From IMG/VR virus record IMGVR_UViG_3300028591_000090, positions 119,631 to 183,630 of that record: DNA of 64,000 bases; one strand, 5' to 3'. The position numbers were made by a program, and so were the translations under genes. Under the pieces are notes generated by a model. The model saw nothing but the letters and a program-made list of their open reading frames with translations, was not told the DNA's origin and searched no databases. Position 1 is the stretch's first letter; each line of letters opens with the position of its first letter. Below are positions 49,965 through 61,636 of this stretch, piece by piece. This stretch comes from a virus (taxonomy: Duplodnaviria; Caudoviricetes).

Positions 49965-49999
49965 AAAAAAATTTCGCTTTAAAGGCGAAATTTTTTTTT
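49965..49999. terminator. Bidirectional terminator-like hairpin
   Basis: AAAAAAATTTCGC-TTTAAAG-GCGAAATTTTTTT. Confidence 0.6.
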
Positions 50000-50002
50000 A
50001 TG

Positions 50003-50197
50003 TATTCTATTTTACATTTTTTATATATAATAATAGAAAAATACAAAAAAAAGTAAATATTTACATTTTATTACTTTTTTATATATATATAATAAAAAAA
50101 TACAAAAAAAAGTAAACATAAATAAAAATATATCTTTCTCTATTATTCTATTTACATTTTTTATATATAATAACAGAGAAATACAAAAAAAAGTAAA
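50003..50197. repeat. Three ~46-55-bp AT-rich direct repeats, each self-palindromic; candidate replication origin
   Basis: Units 50003-50057, 50071-50116 and 50144-50197; consensus TTTAC(A/T)TTTTTT-ATATATAATAA...AAATACAAAAAAAAGTAAA. Confidence 0.8.
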
Positions 50198-50203
50198 AAC
50201 TGG

Positions 50204-50234
50204 TTTGTGGTTTGCAAAAAATTTTGTATTTTTG
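50204..50234 (+). promoter_or_regulatory. Bacteroidota sigma-A promoter
   Basis: TTTG, 19-nt spacer, TATTTTTG (50227-50234); abuts repeat unit 3. Confidence 0.75.
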
Positions 50235-50262
50235 CAAACAGATTGCATTAAATTTTAAAAAT

Positions 50263-52041
50263 ATGAATAAAAGTATAGAATGGATTCCTATTTCAGGAGA
50301 AGATAAAAAATATATTTCTGAAATTTCTTTTATAAAAGAATCTGGATTACCAAAAGGAATTATTAATAAAAAGTTAGCTGATGTTGGTGCTACATTTTTT
50401 ACAGCAAACTGTAATAGTAATTACATTATTGTTTGTCCCACTATTGATTTATTAAAAAGTATTTCTTCTGATAAAAATAATCTTTATCCAATTTTTGAAT
50501 GTTATTCAGGAATTTACGAAAAAGATTTTAATGACTTTATAGAAAAATATAATCCAAAATATATTAAAATTGCTGTAACATATGATAAATTTGAAAAAGT
50601 ATCTTCTTGGATAAATCCAAAAGAATTTAAAGTATTAGTAGATGAATATCATTTATTATTACAAACAGTTGATTATAGAGAAAGTGCAATTAGTTCTTTA
50701 TTTCAATCACTAGAACAATATGATTATGTAAGCTTTATAAGTGCTACACCAATTAATCCAAATTATGAGGTAAAGCAATTGTCAAAATTACCTCATTATG
50801 AAATACAATGGAATAAAACAGAAAATATAATTCCTTATAGAGCAAATACAACAAATGTGTTAAAAACATTAAAAAATTTTATAAAATCTTTTTTATCTCA
50901 AAAACTAAAAGCTATGAATGTTAATGGAGAATTAAAAGTTCCAGAAGAACTTTTTATTTTTCTAAATTCAGTCAATTCGATAAAACAAGTATGTGAAGAT
51001 TTACAATTAGATAAAGAAGATGTTAAAATATGCTGTTCTAATAAAATATCAAATAAAAAAATGTTAGACGGTTATGATATTCAAAATGTAATTGATAAAA
51101 ATAAAAAAATTAATTTTTTCACAAGTAAATGTTTTCAAGGTTGCAATTTATTCTCAAATAGTGGATTGATAATTGTTTGTTCAGATGGAGGAAGAAAATC
51201 AATGATGACTGATTTATCTTCTGATTTAGTACAAATTGCAGGAAGGCTTCGTTTTAATGATGAATATCAAAATGAGTTTAGAAATACAATGATTCATATT
51301 TTTAACACAAAAAACGACGTTGAAAGCGATGAAGAATTCGAGGTTCATATGTTAGAATTAAAAAAAGTGTGTAATGATTTAATAACAATTCAAAACAATA
51401 ATCCTGAGCAAGCACAATCTATGATTTCAAGATTAAATCTTACTAATGATATTGTTGTTGTTGACGATTCAGGAAAATTAGTTTATTCTGAAAATAAAGA
51501 AATGTATTTTAGATATTTTCATGATTTAAAGAAAACTTATAAAAATGGCATAAACATAAGAAAATCATATAATAAAGAAAATTTTGAAATAATAAATCAG
51601 GTTAAATTTATTGAAAACAAAAAAACATTTGAAGATGATATAAAAAGATTTTCTTCTGTAAGTTATAAAGATTTATTGATTGATTTTTATGAAGCAACAA
51701 ATAAAGAGCAATATATTGTAGAAAATCCAGAGTTTGCAGATTATTATAAATATTTAACACTAAAAGAAGTTCATTCTATGCAGTATAGTAAAGAAAGGTT
51801 GACTATTGCTGTTAATGATAAAAAAAGATTAGCTTCAATTATAGATAGATCATTAAAAATAGGTTTTATGCCTGCAAGTGAAATTAAACAACGATTAAAA
51901 GAAGAGTTTGAAAAAGAAGGCATTACTATAACACCAAAAGCAAGTCTTGTAGAAAAATCAGATAATTATACTGCAACTTTATTAAATAAATTATACAATG
52001 GAAAGGTAGTAAAAGGGTATTTTATTGTCGAAAAAAATTAA
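50263..52041 (+). CDS. SF2 (DExH) helicase with a C-terminal putative DNA-binding domain; origin-binding-protein candidate
   Basis: Start re-assigned to ATG 50263. Atypical motif I NKKLADVGAT, IIVCPT, LVDEYH, ISATP, FQGCNL, QIAGRLR. Confidence 0.8.
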   Translation: MNKSIEWIPISGEDKKYISEISFIKESGLPKGIINKKLADVGATFFTANCNSNYIIVCPTIDLLKSISSDKNNLYPIFECYSGIYEKDFNDFIEKYNPKYIKIAVTYDKFEKVSSWINPKEFKVLVDEYHLLLQTVDYRESAISSLFQSLEQYDYVSFISATPINPNYEVKQLSKLPHYEIQWNKTENIIPYRANTTNVLKTLKNFIKSFLSQKLKAMNVNGELKVPEELFIFLNSVNSIKQVCEDLQLDKEDVKICCSNKISNKKMLDGYDIQNVIDKNKKINFFTSKCFQGCNLFSNSGLIIVCSDGGRKSMMTDLSSDLVQIAGRLRFNDEYQNEFRNTMIHIFNTKNDVESDEEFEVHMLELKKVCNDLITIQNNNPEQAQSMISRLNLTNDIVVVDDSGKLVYSENKEMYFRYFHDLKKTYKNGINIRKSYNKENFEIINQVKFIENKKTFEDDIKRFSSVSYKDLLIDFYEATNKEQYIVENPEFADYYKYLTLKEVHSMQYSKERLTIAVNDKKRLASIIDRSLKIGFMPASEIKQRLKEEFEKEGITITPKASLVEKSDNYTATLLNKLYNGKVVKGYFIVEKN

Positions 52042-52047
52042 GCAAAT

Positions 52048-52752
52048 ATGTTATATTTTATAGAAAGTTTTGGCTATTATAAAATAGGTTTTACGAATAA
52101 CTTAAAAGAAAGAATGAAGGCATATTCTTCTATGACACCAAAATTTACACTTATAGGAATAAGAAATGGAAATAAAGAAGAAGAACATATGTTTCATGTT
52201 TATTTACACGAATTTCGTCTTGGTAATAAAGAATGGTTTACAGGATTAAATAATGAAACAATTGAAAAACTTACCAAATTATTTAGCACTAACGAAAATA
52301 CTGATTTTTATTATGAAATAAAAGATATTGCTTATAAAAAAGAACATGAAGAACTTATAAATATTGGATTTCAGAATAAAATAAATTTATATTATGAAAG
52401 TAACTTTGATGAAAAATATGAAGATGATGATTTAAAAATATTTAAAGAATATTTAACACTTAAAGAAATAAATTCTTTAAGATATAATAAAGAAGAAATG
52501 AAAAAAGTTTGTGAAGATAAGAAAAGATTTGAAGATATTATTAATAGTGTTTTAGAAGAAGGATTTATGTCTTCTGCAAATATTAAACAAAAAATGTCAG
52601 TCGTTTTTTCTGAAAATAATATTTCTATTGCACCTAAAGCAACATTAATAGAAAAATCAACAACTTATGATATAAAGAAAACGAAAAAAATGAAAAACGG
52701 AGAAGTTATACATGGTTATTTGATTACAAAAAAACAAGATTCTTTATTTTAA
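52048..52752 (+). CDS. GIY-YIG (T5orf172/MUG113-type) nuclease fused to a copy of the helicase C-terminal domain
   Basis: LYFIE...YKIGFTNNLKERM...EEHMFH...KEWF. The C-terminal 92 aa align without gaps to the helicase C-terminus. Confidence 0.8.
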   Translation: MLYFIESFGYYKIGFTNNLKERMKAYSSMTPKFTLIGIRNGNKEEEHMFHVYLHEFRLGNKEWFTGLNNETIEKLTKLFSTNENTDFYYEIKDIAYKKEHEELINIGFQNKINLYYESNFDEKYEDDDLKIFKEYLTLKEINSLRYNKEEMKKVCEDKKRFEDIINSVLEEGFMSSANIKQKMSVVFSENNISIAPKATLIEKSTTYDIKKTKKMKNGEVIHGYLITKKQDSLF

Positions 52753-54158
52753 TGGGAAAAATTATTCAAACATATACACCGAAAGTAAAGAGAGGGAAAC
52801 CAAGATTTTTTGATTATTTTCCACCGAAAAAGAAACATGCTGTTCTTCGAGATTTATATGCAAGACGAAAAAAGATAATAAACATAAGAAATCTTCGCCC
52901 TTTTAGAAAAAGGAAAATCTATAATGCTTTTTATAGAGGGTGTTATTTTTTTGCAAAAGGTAAGGAACATTTAATTAAAGAAGAATATTCTTATATACAA
53001 GAATTTTCTGTTTTCATTGAAACAATTAAAAACATAAAAGAAGATGCAAAGAGAGTTGATGTTATAAAAGAATATATTTCAAATCCTTTGGTAAATTACT
53101 ATCTTCGTTTATGTTATGATCCACATTCAATGAAAATCATTTTTACTTTCAGTAAGTATTTTTATGATGTCAATTACAAAAGTTGTGTTAGTAAATTTTT
53201 TGTTCCGTCTTTTACAGAAGTAGAAGAAAAATTTTACGATGATACAATAGGGAAATACGACAAAAAGAAATATATTATGACTTATGTCGTATTCTATGGT
53301 AAGAAGCATGAAATGAGAGAAATTTTATTAAAACTTACAGACAATTCTGGTTTTTGTTCTATTAAAAAAGAAAAAATAAACGAAGCAATTGGAAGTACCA
53401 TTATCAATGAGTTTAAGATTCGTAGTGGAGAAAAAATGTTACCGAGAGAAATATTACGGAAATTAGATACAATAGAAAATTATTTTGTCGTAAAAAGACC
53501 ATTAGGTGTTAGGGCTTTTGTCGTTATAGATGGGCTTGGTCGTTTAAATGTATTTGCTCAATCTATGAGAAAAGGCGAATTTGTTAGATTAAAACAAAAG
53601 TATATTGATGCTATTTATAAGCAATTTTTTGTGTTTAAAAATGTCGTTTTTGAATGTTTTGTTAGTACAATCGATGAAGAAAATAATATTACCAAAAATA
53701 TAAACGCTCAATATTTGAGTAATCAAAGACGATTGAAAAAATATAATCTTGATAATGTTCATTTCTTTGTATATGACGTATTAACATTTAACGAATATAA
53801 ACAAGGATATAGTGAACTTACATATGCAGAAAGAAGAGAAAAATTAGAATCTTTATTTCAAGACAAAGAACTCCCAAATATGCATTTATGTGAGGGTACA
53901 CAATTAAAAGATAAACAACATTTAATTTCTTTTGCTTCTTTGGCACAAGAATTTGACGGTAAGGATTATTGGGACGGATTGCAATTTATTCCAAATGGTG
54001 AGTATGATATTAAAGATAACATTCCAGAGATTTTTACTCGTTCATATATCGAAAAAACGTATGATTATAATATCCATGCTCGTGAAAACAGAGAAAAACG
54101 ACTAAATAAAATAATAGAAGGATACAGAAAAAAAAGACAGTCTCTAACGTGCCTATAG
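52752..54158 (+). CDS. ATP-dependent DNA ligase-like protein, degenerate
   Basis: YLRLCYDP, KINEAIGSTII, VVKRPLGVRA (motif I), VFECF (III), HFFVYDVL (IIIa), YAERREKL, WDGLQF (IV). No OB domain. Confidence 0.65.
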   Translation: MGKIIQTYTPKVKRGKPRFFDYFPPKKKHAVLRDLYARRKKIINIRNLRPFRKRKIYNAFYRGCYFFAKGKEHLIKEEYSYIQEFSVFIETIKNIKEDAKRVDVIKEYISNPLVNYYLRLCYDPHSMKIIFTFSKYFYDVNYKSCVSKFFVPSFTEVEEKFYDDTIGKYDKKKYIMTYVVFYGKKHEMREILLKLTDNSGFCSIKKEKINEAIGSTIINEFKIRSGEKMLPREILRKLDTIENYFVVKRPLGVRAFVVIDGLGRLNVFAQSMRKGEFVRLKQKYIDAIYKQFFVFKNVVFECFVSTIDEENNITKNINAQYLSNQRRLKKYNLDNVHFFVYDVLTFNEYKQGYSELTYAERREKLESLFQDKELPNMHLCEGTQLKDKQHLISFASLAQEFDGKDYWDGLQFIPNGEYDIKDNIPEIFTRSYIEKTYDYNIHARENREKRLNKIIEGYRKKRQSLTCL

Positions 54159-57100
54159 ATATTAATAACTATATTGATATAAGAGTAGATAAAAAAACAC
54201 CAGAGGATATTGCTTCCGATATTGAAAGGATGCAAAATGACCTTATTAACGAATATAACGAAAACACAACAACACAATGGGATTGTGATAATGTAAGAAA
54301 AGAGGCTTTTTTTTCACAAGATATTACAGATAATGTTTGTGAACCGCCACAACCTGATTTTGCAGAGCCAGAGCCATTAGAAGAACCAGAAATAACAGAT
54401 TATGCTGAATGTGCTAGTGATATGGCTAATGCAGTAGAAGAAATTGGTGAAGAATTGTCTGAAAAGGCACAATTATATGCAAAAACAATAGAATGTGTAA
54501 ACTATCTTGACGAATGGCTTAAAAACCTTGAGCCTGTATATGAATATAATAAAACAAAAATATCACAAAACAAAAAAGTATACAACAGTTTAGACGAAGC
54601 AACAGGACTTGCTTTATTAACAGACTTACAAACAAGAGGTGCAGGAAAGATTCTTATTGCACTAAAAGAATGGTCTCAATTATTGGGACTTGATATGGAT
54701 ATAAGATATAGAGGTAAAGTTATTTTTGGATTCAAATTCAGATACCAATACAAGAAAGAATTACAAGAAAAGATAACAGATATTCAAAAGGTATATTCTG
54801 ATATTGGTTTACCAGATTTTTTGAATGATTCGAGAGACTTACGATATGAAAAATATGTACAAGAAAATGCCGTTGGATATTTGTATGATAAGTATTATGC
54901 TCTAATGCAACACCCGATAGATAATTTCTTTACACCAGCAGAACGAGGTTTGGTTAAAAACACGAAGAATGCATATCATATGCCAATCAACGAAGATATG
55001 AAAGAATATATCAAAGATGATAAGGTTGCCGTTGAGGTATATGGAAGTAATGGAGAATCTTCAACGTATTATGTTGGTGACGATGAAAAAATTGTAAACG
55101 GTAAAACAAATTATAAAAGATACCAAGAGTTTTTTGAATCGACATTTAAGAATGAATTTGAAAAAAGATGTGATAAGAAATATGAAGAAATAAAGAAAAA
55201 ACTTGCATATAAAACAATACTCGCTTTATTAAAAACAGCTGCTGTAGAAGAAGCGACACTTATTTCTAAAAGTTCTGAATCATTTAAATCTTCTCAAACT
55301 TTTGTAGAAAAATACGAAAAGGTTGCTAAATTACAGAAAAGATTAAAAGACATAAAAAATGAAATTGCAGAATCTTTTTCTCAAGAAAAAATAAAAGAAC
55401 AAGTTGCTAATGTTGATTGTTTTAAGGCAGGAAATATCGAAGAAGCACCTTTTGTAGAACCAGATTTTTCTTATGGATTAAATGACCCGACATTACCAAA
55501 TATTAAAAAGATTTGTTATTGGATAAAGTTTTGTGAATGTGCAACAATATACAATTTAACATCTCCATATATCGAACTTGTTTCTACTGATATAGATAAG
55601 AGAAGTGGATTACCATATCTTATGAACAGTATGAGATATTGGGCTGTTGGTTTTATATGTCCGTCTCCTGCTGGACTTGTAAAAGTTCCATTGCCTGCAA
55701 TATTTGTTCCTTTGTATTGTCTTGCAACACCAATGGGAATACTTGTTTTGTTCTTACAAATGAATGGAATATTCCCAACTTTGTCTCTTATGTTTATTGC
55801 TAATGATATGTCTATATCTATGGCTGCTACAGCAAGTTGTCAAGGATTAACATACGGTAATGACCCATTTAATTTTACTGATGATGATGAAACAAACCTT
55901 TTGTCTATAATTGGAATGGATAAAAGTTATAAAGTTCCTTTTATGACACCAGATGAGTTAAAAACTTTTATTCCAGATAGAACAAATGCACTTATTGCAT
56001 ATGCAGAAAAAAAAGCCGAAAATGGATATGCAAGAATTTATGATTTTATAGAAGAAAAAAATCTTGAACTGTGGGAAAAATATGAAATGCTTAAAAGAGC
56101 ACAAAATGGTGATTTTGATATAGAAGACGAATTAAAGAAAATAAGAAATATCTTTAATGACGCTCTCGATATGGTAAACTTTGAGGCAATAGAAGATAAG
56201 GCATTTGAAAGTATTGATGATGTAAGAAAATTTGTAAGAGATATTTTGTACAGTTTTGATTTACCAACAATAACTCTACCTGATAATTTATGTGAAGTAG
56301 ATCCTCAAAATCCACTAACAGAACTTGTTAAAAGAGTTACAGATTTGTTAAATTCAAAAGTTGGCTTACAAGTAAAACCGTCAGATTTAAGAACTGTTGT
56401 TGTTCAAATATTATATGATTGTTTATACAATCCAAAGATAAACAATTTATTAAGAAGATTACCAGAAAAATTAAAGTTTATCAATACACCATTAAGCAGA
56501 TTACAAGAACTTGCTGCTAAAGGTGGTGAACTCGGTGAAAAAGCAAAAATATCTATTAATGAATTTCAAAAATGTGAAGGTGAGTTTGCAGAACTTAAAA
56601 AGGTTTTATGTGAAATTATTGATACAGCAACTCTGTTGATAGACCCAAATATTTTCTATTCTGATGAAAGATTTTTGAAATTACTTGGATTCTTATCAAT
56701 GGATTTCAATGCTTATAATTGTAGAACAGAACTTGATAATCCAAATATACCAGCATTGGATTTTCTATTTGCTTTAGCACAAATAATTAAAGCAACAATA
56801 GAATCAATGAAATTGGCTGATTTCTTACAAATGATTTCAACAATCAATATCGAAAATAAAGAACTTGAAGCAGTAGAATTTGCAAGACGGTTCGTTCTTT
56901 CTCTTCTTACCGATATTGTAAAAAAATATGTCCCAGAAATTCCAATTATAGACCCGACAACATTACAACTTATGTTAGGTTCTTTAACACAATCATATAA
57001 AAAGATAGCAAAAATCTGCGTTCTATTAACTCAAGTTGATTTGAAAGATGCAAGGGATTTTATTCTTAATATGTTGCCAAAGATTGTTATTGATTTGAAT

Positions 57101-57733
57101 ATGTATAGAGATTTGCTTGTAGAACCTATTATGCAATTTATAGAAGAATATCTTCAAAAAACAGAACAAGCAATATCAGATTTAAGTCCAGTATATTACC
57201 GTGAAATGATACGTAAAGAAATTAATATGTTTTTCGACGAAACAAATGTTTTACTTAAACCAGTTATCGAAACATATAATATGGCAGTTAATACATTTAA
57301 GTTATTAAAGAAATTAAAAGACTTAAAACTTAATTTTAATACTGTTGATATGGCATTAAGACCAAAAACTGTTGCTAAAAAGTTAGCAGAAGCAATGCAG
57401 AATGTAAATTGGAAAAATGAAGTCCTTAAAATGTTAGGTCTTGATGGTATTCCCACTATTGACTTAAATTTGGCTGAACTTGCTATCTTGGCTATGAAAG
57501 TATTTGGCGTTTCATTTAATCACTTTGTTGTGTCTGCTGTATGCTGTTTGTCTGGTGAGCCGGGAAAACAAATGATTCGTGTTTTACATCCAATTGCTTT
57601 TTGTGATGATTTACCACCATATGAAAGATTAAATTTACTTAATCCTTTATTTTGTTTGTTTTTGGATAGTTTTTGTTATGAATCGAAGAAATATGGTGGA
57701 TATTGTTCTAATTTTTTACCAATCGGCACGTAA
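54149..57733 (+). CDS. Large hypothetical protein (1194 aa) with a central hydrophobic, Pro-rich segment
   Basis: GTG start; helical; WAVGFICPSPAGLVKVPLPAIFVPLYCLATPMGILVLFL. Confidence 0.6.
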   Translation: MPIDINNYIDIRVDKKTPEDIASDIERMQNDLINEYNENTTTQWDCDNVRKEAFFSQDITDNVCEPPQPDFAEPEPLEEPEITDYAECASDMANAVEEIGEELSEKAQLYAKTIECVNYLDEWLKNLEPVYEYNKTKISQNKKVYNSLDEATGLALLTDLQTRGAGKILIALKEWSQLLGLDMDIRYRGKVIFGFKFRYQYKKELQEKITDIQKVYSDIGLPDFLNDSRDLRYEKYVQENAVGYLYDKYYALMQHPIDNFFTPAERGLVKNTKNAYHMPINEDMKEYIKDDKVAVEVYGSNGESSTYYVGDDEKIVNGKTNYKRYQEFFESTFKNEFEKRCDKKYEEIKKKLAYKTILALLKTAAVEEATLISKSSESFKSSQTFVEKYEKVAKLQKRLKDIKNEIAESFSQEKIKEQVANVDCFKAGNIEEAPFVEPDFSYGLNDPTLPNIKKICYWIKFCECATIYNLTSPYIELVSTDIDKRSGLPYLMNSMRYWAVGFICPSPAGLVKVPLPAIFVPLYCLATPMGILVLFLQMNGIFPTLSLMFIANDMSISMAATASCQGLTYGNDPFNFTDDDETNLLSIIGMDKSYKVPFMTPDELKTFIPDRTNALIAYAEKKAENGYARIYDFIEEKNLELWEKYEMLKRAQNGDFDIEDELKKIRNIFNDALDMVNFEAIEDKAFESIDDVRKFVRDILYSFDLPTITLPDNLCEVDPQNPLTELVKRVTDLLNSKVGLQVKPSDLRTVVVQILYDCLYNPKINNLLRRLPEKLKFINTPLSRLQELAAKGGELGEKAKISINEFQKCEGEFAELKKVLCEIIDTATLLIDPNIFYSDERFLKLLGFLSMDFNAYNCRTELDNPNIPALDFLFALAQIIKATIESMKLADFLQMISTINIENKELEAVEFARRFVLSLLTDIVKKYVPEIPIIDPTTLQLMLGSLTQSYKKIAKICVLLTQVDLKDARDFILNMLPKIVIDLNMYRDLLVEPIMQFIEEYLQKTEQAISDLSPVYYREMIRKEINMFFDETNVLLKPVIETYNMAVNTFKLLKKLKDLKLNFNTVDMALRPKTVAKKLAEAMQNVNWKNEVLKMLGLDGIPTIDLNLAELAILAMKVFGVSFNHFVVSAVCCLSGEPGKQMIRVLHPIAFCDDLPPYERLNLLNPLFCLFLDSFCYESKKYGGYCSNFLPIGT

Positions 57734-57757
57734 TTTTTATTTTTTTAAATTTTTAAG

Positions 57758-57765
57758 TATGTTTG
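57758..57765 (+). promoter_or_regulatory. -7 element TATGTTTG
   Basis: TAnnTTTG 28 nt before ATG 57794. Confidence 0.6.
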
Positions 57766-57793
57766 CGTTGTTAAACTTTTAAATTTTTATAAA

Positions 57794-58975
57794 ATGAAAT
57801 ATGAAGATATTGTAGGTCACAGTCTTGAACCTAATCCAGATTATGAATACTTATTCTTAATGCCATCTGGAAAATACAATGACACGGTAAAATTAACCGA
57901 TGAAGATAAAAAAAGTGTAAAAATCCTATGCAAAGAACCTTATGCACAAGAATATTACAATACGTATGTTTCTAGTGACAAATGTAATATTGCTTGTAAG
58001 GATTTAATGTTGAATCAAATCTATGATGTTCGACCAGTTTCAATCAACAACCAAGACAAACTTATTCATTGTATTGAAGTTGAATCAGGCTCATCTGTTT
58101 TTGTTCCAATTTCAGATGTTAAAAACAAAAATGAACTTACAACAGGTACAATTCTTAAAGTTCTTTTGCAGAAAAACGACAATGGATTCAATTTTGCTTC
58201 TATGAAAAAAGCAGAAAAAGTGATTTGCTTTAAAACTTTGCAACAATATCTTGAAAATGGAACAGATTTCGATGTTATTGTAAAAGAATTGGTAAGAGGT
58301 GGTTTTATTGCTTCTTTTGAAAACACAATAGATTGTTTTATTCCTGGTGCTCACGCCGCAGCAAATATTATTTACGATTTTGAATCTTATTTGGGTAAAA
58401 CGATTCACGTTGTTGTTGATAATTATGATTCAGCAAGCAATATGTTTATTGTATCACATAAGAAATACATTAAGAAAATTTTACCAGAACGAGTTAAAGA
58501 TATTAACTTTGGTACAAAATATAAAGGTGTTCTTACAAGTGATCCAACAAAATTCGGTATATTTGTTGAATTTGCAATTAATCCTAAATACGGACCAATC
58601 TATACTGGTTTGATTCATGTATCAGAACTTGTAGACAAGTATGCAAATTTAAAACAAGGTAATGAAGTAGAATTCTATGTATCTCGTGTCCTTTATGATA
58701 GAGAAAAGAAAAATTTCAAAATAAATCTTACTTTTGACGCTTCTAAAATAGATGAAGAAAATCTATTTTGGCAAGATATGAAGGATAACAAAGAGGGAAA
58801 AGAATTTAATTTTATGATTGAAGATAAAAAATTAATTATTTCTGACGGTGTTGAAGACGGTTTTTCTATAAGTGTTAGTGCTTATGGTTTCGAGAATGAG
58901 GCTCTTGGTAAAACAAAAGTTGTTCTATCTTATGTAGACCATATAAACAAACAAGTAGGATTAAATTTTGTGTAG
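57794..58975 (+). CDS. Ribosomal protein bS1-like multi-S1-domain protein
   Basis: VKELVRGGFIASFENTIDCFIPG and KFGIFVEF...YTGLIHVSEL are S1-domain signatures. Confidence 0.8.
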   Translation: MKYEDIVGHSLEPNPDYEYLFLMPSGKYNDTVKLTDEDKKSVKILCKEPYAQEYYNTYVSSDKCNIACKDLMLNQIYDVRPVSINNQDKLIHCIEVESGSSVFVPISDVKNKNELTTGTILKVLLQKNDNGFNFASMKKAEKVICFKTLQQYLENGTDFDVIVKELVRGGFIASFENTIDCFIPGAHAAANIIYDFESYLGKTIHVVVDNYDSASNMFIVSHKKYIKKILPERVKDINFGTKYKGVLTSDPTKFGIFVEFAINPKYGPIYTGLIHVSELVDKYANLKQGNEVEFYVSRVLYDREKKNFKINLTFDASKIDEENLFWQDMKDNKEGKEFNFMIEDKKLIISDGVEDGFSISVSAYGFENEALGKTKVVLSYVDHINKQVGLNFV

Positions 58976-59019
58976 GATGATATGATGTTTATTATCATTG
59001 TTCATGATTTTTTTAGTGG

Positions 59020-59050
59020 AGAGGTAACAGTAATGTTACCTCTTTTTTTT
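59020..59050 (+). terminator. Intrinsic terminator
   Basis: AGAGGTAACA-GTAA-TGTTACCTCT followed by a T run. Confidence 0.85.
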
Positions 59051-59155
59051 GTGTTAATCAAATCGTTAAAGTTTTTGATAATATCAAACAAAAACGATAA
59101 ATAACAAAAAGTTTAAATATAATTTTAGGAATGTTTAAAATTTTTTACAGAAAAC

Positions 59156-59187
59156 CTTGTGGTTAATAATAAAATTTAGTATTTTTG
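59156..59187 (+). promoter_or_regulatory. Bacteroidota sigma-A promoter for nrdD
   Basis: CTTG, 20-nt spacer, TATTTTTG (59180-59187). Confidence 0.65.
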
Positions 59188-59266
59188 CTTAACAATTTTT
59201 TACTCAATTACGGTTTCTATAAAAAGAACCTTTTGGGGCTTTTCGACTTATTAAAAAATATTTTTT

Positions 59267-61636
59267 ATGGTTACAACAACAGTTATTAAAAGAGACAATT
59301 CAACAGAAAAATTCAATCAGAAAAAGATTGAAAACGTATTAAAAAAAGTATTTAAGAATACACATCATAAATCTCCATCTAAAAGTGCTAAAGTAGTAAC
59401 AACATTAGTATTGGAGAAAATAGAAGAACTAAACGTAGAAAAGATTAAAATAGAAAAAATTCAAGATATTATAAGAGATTCCCTTATTGAAATGAATTAT
59501 TCAGAAGAAGTAAAAGAATTCGTTATTTTTAGAAACGAAAGAGCAAAAGTAAGAGAATTTGTAAATAATAAAATCAAATTTATTGAAAACTATAAAAAAG
59601 CAAGCAATACTGCCAATGCAACGGTAGATGACAACTCTAATGTTGGTAATAAAAACATTGGTGTACTAAATGCTGAAATCCACAAAACAGACAATATCCA
59701 AATTAATCGTGGTATGGTTCTACATAAATTAAAAGAATTATATCCAGATTTTGATTCTAAAAATTATCTGCAAGATATTGAAAATCATATAATTTACAAA
59801 CATGATGAAAGTTCATTTGCAGGTGCCATTGTGCCATACTGCTGTAGTATAAGTATGTATCCATTCTTGCTACACGGATTAAAACAAATTGGTGGATTAA
59901 GTGCTTCTCCTAAAAACTTGGACTCTTTTTGTGGTATGTATATCAATATGATATTCGCTGTCGCTGGACAATTCGTCGGGGCTGTAGCTACAAGTGAAAT
60001 ACTTGTTTACTTTGATTATTTTGCTCGTAAAGATTGGGGAGATGATTATTATAAAGACGCAAACGGATTTTATAAAATCGGTTATAAATTAAGAAAATTA
60101 TTAAATGCAACTCATTATTGGACAAATGATGTTCAAGAATTATCTCAACACGACTTTGGTAGCATACCATTAAATGAATTAAGAGATGAAATTGTTTATG
60201 AAAGTAATCGACCATTAACAGAAGAAGAACTGAAAGAATATGCAGAAAAAATTAAAGAAAATCCTGATTTTGTATTAAATCTTGGTGACGGAACAAGAAC
60301 AATCAAAGGTCAGATTCACCAATATTTCCAACAAATCGTATATTCAATAAATCAGCCAGCTGCTTCAAGAGGTCAGCAAGCTGCTTTTGTTAATTTTAGT
60401 TATTTTGATAAAGCATTTTTCGAAGGAATGTTTGGTGGATTTACATTCCCAGATGGAACAAAACCACAATGGAAATCATTGTCTTGGTTACAGAAAGATT
60501 TTATGATGTGGTTTAATGAAGAAAGAACTAAATGTTTGCTTACATTTCCTGTTGAATCGTTTGCTTTAGTTAATATAGACGGTAAATGGGTTGATGAAGA
60601 TTCTGTTAAATTTGTTACAGAAGAATATGCAAGAGGTCATAGTTTTTTTACCTACATTAGTGATACTGTTGATAGTTTGAGCTCATGCTGTCGTTTGAAG
60701 AACAAAATTCAAACAAAAGAATTTAACTTTACTAACGGTAATATGGGTATTATGACTGGTTCAAAATCAGTAATAACATTGAACTTAAATCGTATTATTC
60801 AAGATTCTCATGCTAAATGGATAGAAGAATCTCCAGATTCTATGGCATTCTACGATGCATTAAAAGAAGATTTGATTGAAATTCTTGAACGTGTTTATAA
60901 GTATCATACAGCATATAATTCTTTGCTTGAAGATGTTTATAATGCAGATTTATTACCTGTTTATAAGGCAGGATTTATTGACTTGAAAAAACAATATCTT
61001 ACTATTGGTTTGAATGGTTTGAATGAAGCTGCTGAATTTTTAGGTATGGAATGTAATGATAATGCAGAATATTCACATTTCTGTCAATTGATATTCTCAA
61101 CTATTAAAGAACAAAATCTATTACATAAGACAAAAGATTTAACATTTAATACAGAACAAGTTCCTGCTGAATCTCTTGCAATTAAAAACTATAATTGGGA
61201 TAAGGCAGACGGTTATGTTGTTCCAGAAGATAGAAATTTGTATGCTTCTTATATCTATATTCCAAGTGATAAATCTATAAGTGTTCTTGATAAGATAAAA
61301 CTACACGGTTCTAATTATATCGGAGAATATCTTGATGGTGGTTCTGCTGCTCACATAAATCTTGAAGAACATTTATCAGAAAAACAATATAGAATGATAT
61401 TAGATTATTCAGTAAAAGTCGGTTGTCAATATTTCACTTTCAACATTCCTAACACATGCTGCGATGATTGTGGCTATATTGCAAAACATCCTTTTGATGT
61501 TTGTCCTAAATGTGGAAGCAAGAATGTGTCTATGTATGATAGGGTAATTGGCTATTTAACTAAAATAAAGAACTGGTCAGAAGGTAGACAAATAGAACAG
61601 AAAACAAGGGTTTATTCTAAATTAGAAAACGAATAA
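59267..61636 (+). CDS. nrdD: Anaerobic (class III) ribonucleoside-triphosphate reductase
   Basis: ATP cone VIKRD, IYKHDE, PYCC, SCCRL, EQVPAESLA, CDDC..CPKC, glycyl-radical motif RVIGYL. Confidence 0.96.
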   Translation: MVTTTVIKRDNSTEKFNQKKIENVLKKVFKNTHHKSPSKSAKVVTTLVLEKIEELNVEKIKIEKIQDIIRDSLIEMNYSEEVKEFVIFRNERAKVREFVNNKIKFIENYKKASNTANATVDDNSNVGNKNIGVLNAEIHKTDNIQINRGMVLHKLKELYPDFDSKNYLQDIENHIIYKHDESSFAGAIVPYCCSISMYPFLLHGLKQIGGLSASPKNLDSFCGMYINMIFAVAGQFVGAVATSEILVYFDYFARKDWGDDYYKDANGFYKIGYKLRKLLNATHYWTNDVQELSQHDFGSIPLNELRDEIVYESNRPLTEEELKEYAEKIKENPDFVLNLGDGTRTIKGQIHQYFQQIVYSINQPAASRGQQAAFVNFSYFDKAFFEGMFGGFTFPDGTKPQWKSLSWLQKDFMMWFNEERTKCLLTFPVESFALVNIDGKWVDEDSVKFVTEEYARGHSFFTYISDTVDSLSSCCRLKNKIQTKEFNFTNGNMGIMTGSKSVITLNLNRIIQDSHAKWIEESPDSMAFYDALKEDLIEILERVYKYHTAYNSLLEDVYNADLLPVYKAGFIDLKKQYLTIGLNGLNEAAEFLGMECNDNAEYSHFCQLIFSTIKEQNLLHKTKDLTFNTEQVPAESLAIKNYNWDKADGYVVPEDRNLYASYIYIPSDKSISVLDKIKLHGSNYIGEYLDGGSAAHINLEEHLSEKQYRMILDYSVKVGCQYFTFNIPNTCCDDCGYIAKHPFDVCPKCGSKNVSMYDRVIGYLTKIKNWSEGRQIEQKTRVYSKLENE

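Follow-up and report, generated by a model that had tools for sequence, protein, structure and literature searches.

Two adjacent genes with related C-terminal domains

The DNA analyzed here, from a large Bacteroidota phage and comprising the final 64 kilobases (kb) of the 183.6-kb IMG/VR virus record IMGVR_UViG_3300028591_000090 (CheckV completeness 69%), is referred to below as the window (WIN). It holds a helicase-like gene and a nuclease gene that lie next to each other in the same orientation behind one promoter-like site, which abuts an array of direct repeats (Table 1). The helicase-like protein has 592 amino acids, starts at the ATG at 50263 and is the same as the database gene call P0002 (gene 50263-52041); the nuclease has 234 amino acids (gene 52048-52752). 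Both end in versions of a single domain, hereafter the tail. Comparison with relatives' loci, which were fetched by protein identity and are designated L with a number, identifies the nuclease tail as that of another helicase allele, carried by nuclease-free sibling phages, rather than as a duplicate made locally.

The relationship of the two tails is evident from a gapless alignment beginning at the motif YLTLKE (51751 in the helicase gene, 52450 in the nuclease gene), in which a recount returned exactly the 41 identities in 92 positions counted by hand in the original prediction, a reading of the sequence made before any database search; BLASTP of the whole helicase against the whole nuclease gave an E-value of 8e-25. 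These two are the only tail copies in the 183.6-kb record. Because the more than 1271 homologues of the helicase (about 560-600 amino acids) cover 97-99% of the query, the tail is regarded as native to the helicase. When the two-copy tail profile was compared with 1.84 billion representatives, 54 proteins were found, in four groups: helicases of ~580-607 amino acids and T5orf172 proteins of ~180-250 amino acids, with the tail terminal in both, one T5orf172 protein with the second half of the tail twice, and short stand-alone or fragmentary forms. The profile also matched 10 stretches of the tape-measure protein P0143, which was discounted as probable coiled-coil noise.

Origin of the nuclease tail

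The decisive comparison is with L123 (Logan SRR29277934), in which the helicase gene is followed directly by the ligase-like gene and the nuclease is lacking. Positions 52448-60649 of the window correspond to 1640-9838 of L123 without a break, at 94.6% identity over 8204 nucleotides (nt). To the left, identity between the helicase cores of the two loci drops to 71% in DNA and 55% in protein, and L123 has nothing that corresponds to the nuclease N-terminal domain. Base 52448 sits two bases ahead of the YLTLKE codons, and the equivalent L123 position is inside the helicase gene; judged from these alignments, base 52448 is a recombination junction. Over its last 100 amino acids, the nuclease shares 97% identity with the end of the L123 helicase, but only about 38-40% with the tail of the window's own helicase. 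A stretch of 31 nt of near-identity joins the two tail-coding regions at the conserved YLTLKE start of the tail. The 38% and 97% figures thus do not support the idea of a locally duplicated domain that directs both proteins to the same sites.

The tails of the window nuclease and the L123 helicase differ by 11 synonymous and 3 non-synonymous changes, with a ratio of non-synonymous to synonymous rates (dN/dS) of 0.055 and a synonymous rate (dS) of 0.23; dS of the next gene is 0.21. Since the two dS values match and dN/dS is low, the tail belongs to the backbone shared by the two phages and has been under purifying selection in both proteins. The nuclease is absent from a further sibling, L023, and the ligase-like protein of the window is 95-98% identical to its counterparts in L123 and L023. 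L023 was nevertheless rejected as a nuclease-free counterpart for the junction, as its 91.7% match to the window is carried by the ligase-like gene and its tail is only 59% identical. A scan of IMG/VR with the ligase-like protein as query found no close sibling.

Tail exchange in other phages

A comparison of the locus across related phages, as proposed with the original prediction, gave not only the junction with L123 at 52448 but also swaps that arose independently in two further pairs. L003 and L004 share gene order with the window, and identity between the two is 98% for the ligase-like protein but only 58% for the helicase core. The tail of the L003 nuclease matches that of the L004 helicase, with 98% identity in amino acids and 94% in DNA (20 synonymous vs. 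2 non-synonymous changes; dN/dS 0.019), and in the reverse pairing the L004 nuclease tail is closest to the L003 helicase tail, at 68%, so that the swap is reciprocal. L016 and L022 represent one small phage and agree at 97-98% in the flanks. The L016 locus has a distant helicase and a T5orf172 N-terminal domain in place of the 88 bp upstream of the L022 helicase and its residues 1-465, and the T5orf172 domain is thereby in frame with the resident helicase tail. Both the window with L123 and L016 with L022 therefore show what is expected of a homing gene, namely its presence or absence between close relatives at the border of an exchanged segment.

Within the latter pair, the nuclease-borne tail (L016:4720-5109) and the helicase-borne tail (L022:3754-4143) have 100 identical residues, after which 12 of 17 wing-hairpin positions differ. 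This may reflect either a conversion patch or rapid change at an element likely to contact DNA.

In a maximum-likelihood tree of 34 tails, eight of them from nucleases, at least 6-7 label changes are needed to account for the nuclease tails. Each nuclease tail is sister to a helicase tail of another genome (support 100/98, 100/99, 98/88 and 93/86) and never to that of its own helicase; in all four genomes with both genes (4/4) its placement is with a foreign helicase. Tail-less T5orf172 genes lie directly 3' of the helicase gene in L009, L010 and 8 of 80 metagenome loci, and such nucleases thus settle habitually at the 3' end of this gene.

The combination is also found away from the helicase. 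A T5orf172 protein with a tail is encoded on a terminase-bearing phage contig that lacks this helicase (L017:3106-3807; also L018 and L019), and its tail groups with those of helicases from Bacteroides/Prevotella integrative elements (L005 type). From this grouping, the L017-type protein could be a weapon against an integrated element or satellite, similar to the ICP1 nuclease Odn discussed below. Cultured crAss-like Bacteroides phages carry a free-standing gene for a 181-amino-acid protein of T5orf172 and winged helix, annotated as 'hypothetical', in the structural module beside another GIY endonuclease (L120:5001-5546 in Kehishuvirus 'tikkala', OQ198717.1; PhiCrAssBcn14-18). This gene is an experimentally tractable relative.

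Table 1. Coordinates of the features at the helicase-nuclease locus of the window
Feature	Position	Strand	Description
AT-flanked hairpin	49965..49997		Bidirectionally terminator-like; separates the repeat array from the leftward RuvC-like gene
Three direct 47-nt repeats	50011-50057, 50070-50116, 50151-50197	+	Candidate helicase-bound origin or operator
Promoter-like site, Bacteroidota type	50204..50234	+	TTTG (50204-50207), 19 nt, TATTTTTG (50227-50234); read directly from sequence
Helicase core	50263..51627	+	Two SF2-type RecA-like domains; DEYH, SAT and QIAGRLR motifs; Walker A lysine replaced (D-V-G-A-T)
Helicase C-terminal domain (type X)	51652..52041	+	Helical bundle and winged helix; native to the helicase family
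T5orf172 (GIY-YIG superfamily) nuclease domain and linker	52048..52447	+	Pfam PF13455, PF10544; no counterpart in nuclease-free siblings
Nuclease C-terminal domain (type Y)	52448..52752	+	By descent the 3' end of a sibling phage's helicase gene
Ligase-like gene	52752..54158	+	First shared-backbone gene right of the swapped module; PHROG 114 at 5.6e-8

Properties of the helicase, the nuclease and the tail

The helicase has no match in Pfam or PHROGs, and sequence and profile searches of the PDB gave chance-level matches only. The AlphaFold model of its core (predicted local distance difference test score, pLDDT, 85.6) was matched by Foldseek to the superfamily 2 (SF2) helicases DEAD-box, WRN and T4 UvsW with an E-value of about 4e-9 and a probability of 1.0, and motifs II (DExH), III (SAT) and VI (QxxGRxxR) are invariant across the helicase alignments. 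The SF2 motor that had been proposed is thus borne out in fold and motifs but not in Walker A, where the lysine of GK(S/T) is missing in every family member, including the distant L016 type (G-C-G-L-T-T). The loop (50365-50400, helicase residues 35-46) reads N-K-x-x-x-D-V-G-(G/A)-T, with an invariant lysine six residues upstream. This departure would mean either an unusual mode of ATP binding or that the protein is no motor. Because the Walker A lysine is absent and ATPase activity is only predicted, we use the label 'SF2-fold helicase-like'.

Family copies without the nuclease occur in Bacteroides and Prevotella chromosomes, some of them beside integrases. At L005:2411-9711 and in L105-L117, the helicase lies within chromosomal islands of these genera, near alaS and with tyrosine integrases and a DUF3871 protein next to it; these islands look like an uncharacterised family of integrative elements in which the helicase may be the replication gene. 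A single in-frame TAG was seen where relatives have Gln or Leu in L009, L010, L011 and L014 (helicase tail) and in L006 and L008 (core), and in-frame TGA codons were seen in two others. Given these codons in helicase genes, the IMG/VR and rumen phages concerned probably have recoded stop codons.

The nuclease N-terminal part matches the Pfam families MUG113 (PF13455; 1.7e-7, 32.2 bits against a cut-off of 22.3) and T5orf172 (PF10544; 6.7e-6, 27 bits against 20), both past the curated cut-offs. A genome search found the T5orf172 gene only once in the record (29.6 bits), and a word-based homologue search with the nuclease returned only itself. The catalytic residues that had been read as apparently intact, the Arg of K-E-R-M and the Glu of E-W-F, are invariant in the 12 aligned homologues, and the GIY/YIG-like strands are kept as well. 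Endonuclease activity is predicted from the profile match and the conserved residues. The T5orf172 part, of ~100 amino acids, holds no other DNA-binding domain.

For the tail, a winged helix had been expected, and structure prediction from a 26-row alignment yielded one (pLDDT 94.9): a helical bundle is followed by a beta-alpha-alpha-beta-beta winged helix, with strands at residues 71-74, 106-115 and 118-127 and helices at 75-89 and 97-102. For residues 58-129 of the tail, the matches listed in an exhaustive structural scan were almost exclusively winged helices at weak Z-scores of 3.7-5.3, headed by Cdc6/Orc1 on origin DNA (Z 5.3) and including the origin-binding domain of phage P4 (Z 4.5). 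Across tail types the wing varies, whereas the predicted recognition helix (P-K-A-S/T-L-I-E) hardly changes.

Repeats, promoter and neighbouring genes

The DNA is AT-rich (29% GC). Leftward genes end with a RuvC-like gene (start 49910) and the rightward set opens with the helicase (50263); the products of the window's genes include a T4-like late sigma factor, a RuvC-like resolvase, a ligase-like protein and a family-B polymerase. The layout between the divergent genes is of the iteron type, with three direct repeats and an AT-rich stretch beside a candidate initiator gene. Each repeat unit is bounded by TTTAC(A/T)T6 and A8-GTAAA, with an AT-rich core between them, and the copies are 77-96% identical to the reference copy. 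They are unique in the 183.6 kb, where they also form the sole half-site cluster, and the array ends 66 nt upstream of the helicase start. Three palindromic repeats had been described here; the three copies stand, but they are direct repeats whose palindromy is weak, consisting of 5-nt inverted ends with T and A runs, and they fold no better than shuffled sequences (z -0.8 to -1.5). The window does not match L123 from at least 177 nt ahead of the helicase gene, and for this reason the proximal part of the array is placed inside the swapped module.

Arrays of like design (TTAC-A-T run, spacer, A run-GTAA) precede the helicase gene in L003 (2x59 nt) and in the 212-kb phage L014 (4x60 nt). The other tail clade (L004, L023, L123) has a different unit ending, TATGTA and a homopolymer run. 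In each of these three independent Logan assemblies the contig ends 175-177 nt ahead of the helicase gene, probably because of a repeat array there. It is possible, at somewhat below even chances, that the 47-nt repeats are binding sites of the resident helicase tail and serve as an origin, an operator or both. The cumulative GC-skew minimum (48.4-50.4 kb) falls at the repeats.

The promoter-like site between the array and the helicase gene fits the Bacteroidota (Bacteroides) promoter consensus and is a candidate promoter of the helicase-nuclease operon. TAnnTTTG is also present ahead of the helicase start in L003, L004, L023 and L123. A scan for sigma-70 sites remained at chance level (7 found vs. 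7.5 expected), and Rfam gave no credible match in the intergenic region. The hairpin that had been noticed on the other side of the repeats was recovered by a terminator scan (1 site vs. 0.0 expected) and by DNA folding (-12.2 kcal/mol, z -5.46); no counterpart is evident in the L003 intergenic sequence. It lies within the divergent promoter region, 55 nt upstream of the RuvC-like start, which is an odd place for a terminator, and may be an insulator between two transcription units or part of an origin.

Proposed mechanism and alternative explanations

On balance, we think it probable that the locus is a swappable replication module, consisting of the repeats, an SF2 helicase with a winged-helix tail and a homing-type nuclease at its right edge, and that the nuclease targets a rival allele. 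In the proposed model, the tail would be a DNA-binding domain that guides the nuclease to the sites of the rival helicase allele, probably the repeats by that allele's helicase gene, and the nuclease would cut nearby. Repair off the nuclease-bearing genome would then replace the rival's repeats or upstream region and its helicase core with the invading module. The common tail would act as the right-hand homology arm and hold the fusion in frame, which would account for every junction being in frame and at the conserved start of the tail. The genome of the nuclease-bearing phage itself would be spared, as both its repeats and its helicase tail belong to another type. Sibling phages would thus be excluded, or the module would spread in a super-Mendelian manner, on the principle demonstrated by experiment for ICP1 Odn. 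An extended version of this model, in which the locus is a replicon-level gene drive among sibling jumbo phages, with every helicase allele accompanied by a nuclease whose origin-binding tail is that of the displaced allele and directs it to cut the rival origin, and with the same tail serving as the homology arm by which the module of repeats, helicase and nuclease is copied into the rival, is more tentative, and the odds appear to be against it; L003 and L004 would then be two drives aimed at each other.

Several observations weigh against the swappable-module model. Motor activity of the helicase is uncertain, judging by its Walker A loop. Foldseek found no PDB match to the tail at E <= 0.001 (E at least 0.48), the weak structural scores establish no more than the fold class, and some of the winged helices matched by the tail bind proteins. 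Given the near-invariance of the recognition helix and the half-site core TACATTTTT, which is common to the window, L003 and L014, tails of different type might read similar sites, and this would weaken the claim that a phage's own genome is spared. In L016 and L022 most of the upstream intergenic region is the same, so a nuclease-bearing phage of this type may keep sites for the tail that it has captured. The GC-skew minimum is not independent evidence of an origin, since it coincides with divergent transcription. The expected co-occurrence of helicase homologues with such repeats held at L003 and L014 but not at ~100 integrative-element loci with this helicase, where no repeat array lies nearby and the half-site TAC(N)TTTTT shows hardly any enrichment ahead of the helicase gene (0.45 vs. 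0.17 per kb). No iteron array was found in the small phage L022 either, and the array is thus a trait of the jumbo-phage group only. The direction of the exchanges (invasion vs. loss) is one that we infer.

The explanation closest to the original prediction is that the tail reads the local repeats, so that helicase and nuclease share one origin and the nuclease is an initiator nickase or origin-processing enzyme. The adjacency and common orientation of the genes behind one promoter abutting the repeats agree with it, as do the nearly identical recognition-helix motif of the two tails and the conservation of the half-site core among relatives with different tails. Yet the close siblings L123 and L023 share the backbone and do without the nuclease, which is therefore dispensable for replication; the nuclease tail, 38% identical to that of its own helicase, always groups with a foreign one; and in some other phages the T5orf172 gene that follows the helicase carries no tail. 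We consider this explanation unlikely. Of the roles offered earlier for the nuclease, a homing endonuclease that spreads the cassette and an exclusion factor both fit the comparative data, and the initiator nickase is disfavoured by the siblings that lack the gene.

It is also improbable that an ordinary homing endonuclease simply landed in the 3' part of a helicase gene as a passenger and retained the tail as a leftover or as a domain for protein contact. Such a fusion would be in keeping with the junctions at YLTLKE, where the 31 nt of near-identity are a possible recombination hot spot, with the tail-less T5orf172 genes 3' of the helicase and with the protein binders among the matched winged helices. 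A leftover is difficult to reconcile with the strong purifying selection on the nuclease-attached tail (dN/dS values given above), with its persistence in T5orf172 proteins on phage contigs lacking a nearby helicase (L017-L019) and in the free-standing gene of crAss-like phages, and with the absence of any other DNA-binding domain in the T5orf172 part. Finally, the protein might be a domesticated regulator, that is, a T5orf172 protein that does not cut and acts as a repressor or competitor at helicase-type sites. A precedent exists in CapR, a homing-endonuclease relative turned repressor, and the gene does lie in an operon beside a repeat array that overlaps the promoter region. This seems very unlikely, as the Arg, the Glu and the GIY/YIG-like strands are conserved in 12 of 12 homologues and the gene marks presence/absence polymorphisms and exchange boundaries in the manner of active homing genes.

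Relation to known systems

Should the swappable-module model be correct, it would provide a concrete mechanism for the replacement of modules at replication loci of large uncultured phages, natural pairs of a programmable nuclease and a binding domain, and a way to predict which phages exclude which. The locus also points to a candidate origin and to a large uncharacterised helicase family (the more than 1271 homologues mentioned above) in mobile elements of Bacteroides and Prevotella.

The T-even Seg proteins, which are free-standing and known for intron-less homing and marker exclusion, and I-TevI are GIY-YIG homing endonucleases in which a catalytic domain is connected by a linker to a C-terminal DNA-binding domain, and they cleave away from the binding site. 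As in the case of the Seg proteins, the nuclease gene of the window adjoins an essential gene, is present or absent among close relatives and marks the edge of a co-converted segment. The Seg proteins and I-TevI differ in having DNA-binding modules of their own rather than the C-terminal domain of a rival allele of the neighbouring gene. On the side of the helicase, the herpes simplex protein UL9, the phage P4 alpha protein (1ka8) and archaeal Cdc6/Orc1 (2qby) likewise are replication motors or initiators with a C-terminal origin-binding domain, which is a winged helix in the latter two. However, the P4 and Cdc6/Orc1 matches are weak (Z 4.5-5.3) and come with no sequence similarity, and the helicase of the window lacks the Walker A lysine and has only a predicted origin-binding function.

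The closest known case is Odn (gp88), the origin-directed nuclease of the cholera phage ICP1, in which a T5orf172 nuclease is joined to an origin-binding RepA_N domain copied from the initiator of the satellite PLE; it cuts the PLE iterons and selects for replicon swapping, and E180A is its published catalytic mutant (Barth, Nguyen & Seed, eLife 2021, PMC8263062). Relatives of Odn include gp5 and proteins of the coliphages Inny, Muut and Mt1B1_P17, and T5orf172 genes have been found to mark genetic-exchange boundaries and to swap DNA-binding domains (bioRxiv 10.1101/2023.03.23.533998). The PLE protein CapR is a repressor derived from T5orf172 homing endonucleases (PMC8096241; described in bioRxiv 10.1101/2023.03.23.533998). 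The original prediction knew of no described system with the architecture seen in the window, a claim that fails because Odn is a clear precedent (PMC8263062), with more in the second study (bioRxiv 10.1101/2023.03.23.533998).

Odn and the nuclease of the window have in common a T5orf172 domain combined with a DNA-binding domain (in the window a predicted one) that was taken over from a competitor's replication protein, descent from homing endonucleases, and the swapping of the rival's replication modules in response. Odn borrows RepA_N from a satellite, whereas here it is the winged-helix tail of an SF2 helicase, which has no Pfam match and thus is not RepA_N; the likeness would lie in the way of working and not in the sequence family. 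Cleavage of PLE iterons by Odn is proven, whereas the nuclease of the window is known from its sequence alone. The apparent rival is also of another kind, namely the allele of a sibling phage at the same locus (one reciprocal pair), with the nuclease directly beside the resident helicase. The locus therefore suggests that aiming of the Odn type extends to sibling phages of gut Bacteroidota, with swaps among co-circulating alleles, and what it adds to Odn is a tail derived from a helicase, competition between sibling alleles with a reciprocal pair, and a junction showing how such a chimera arises.

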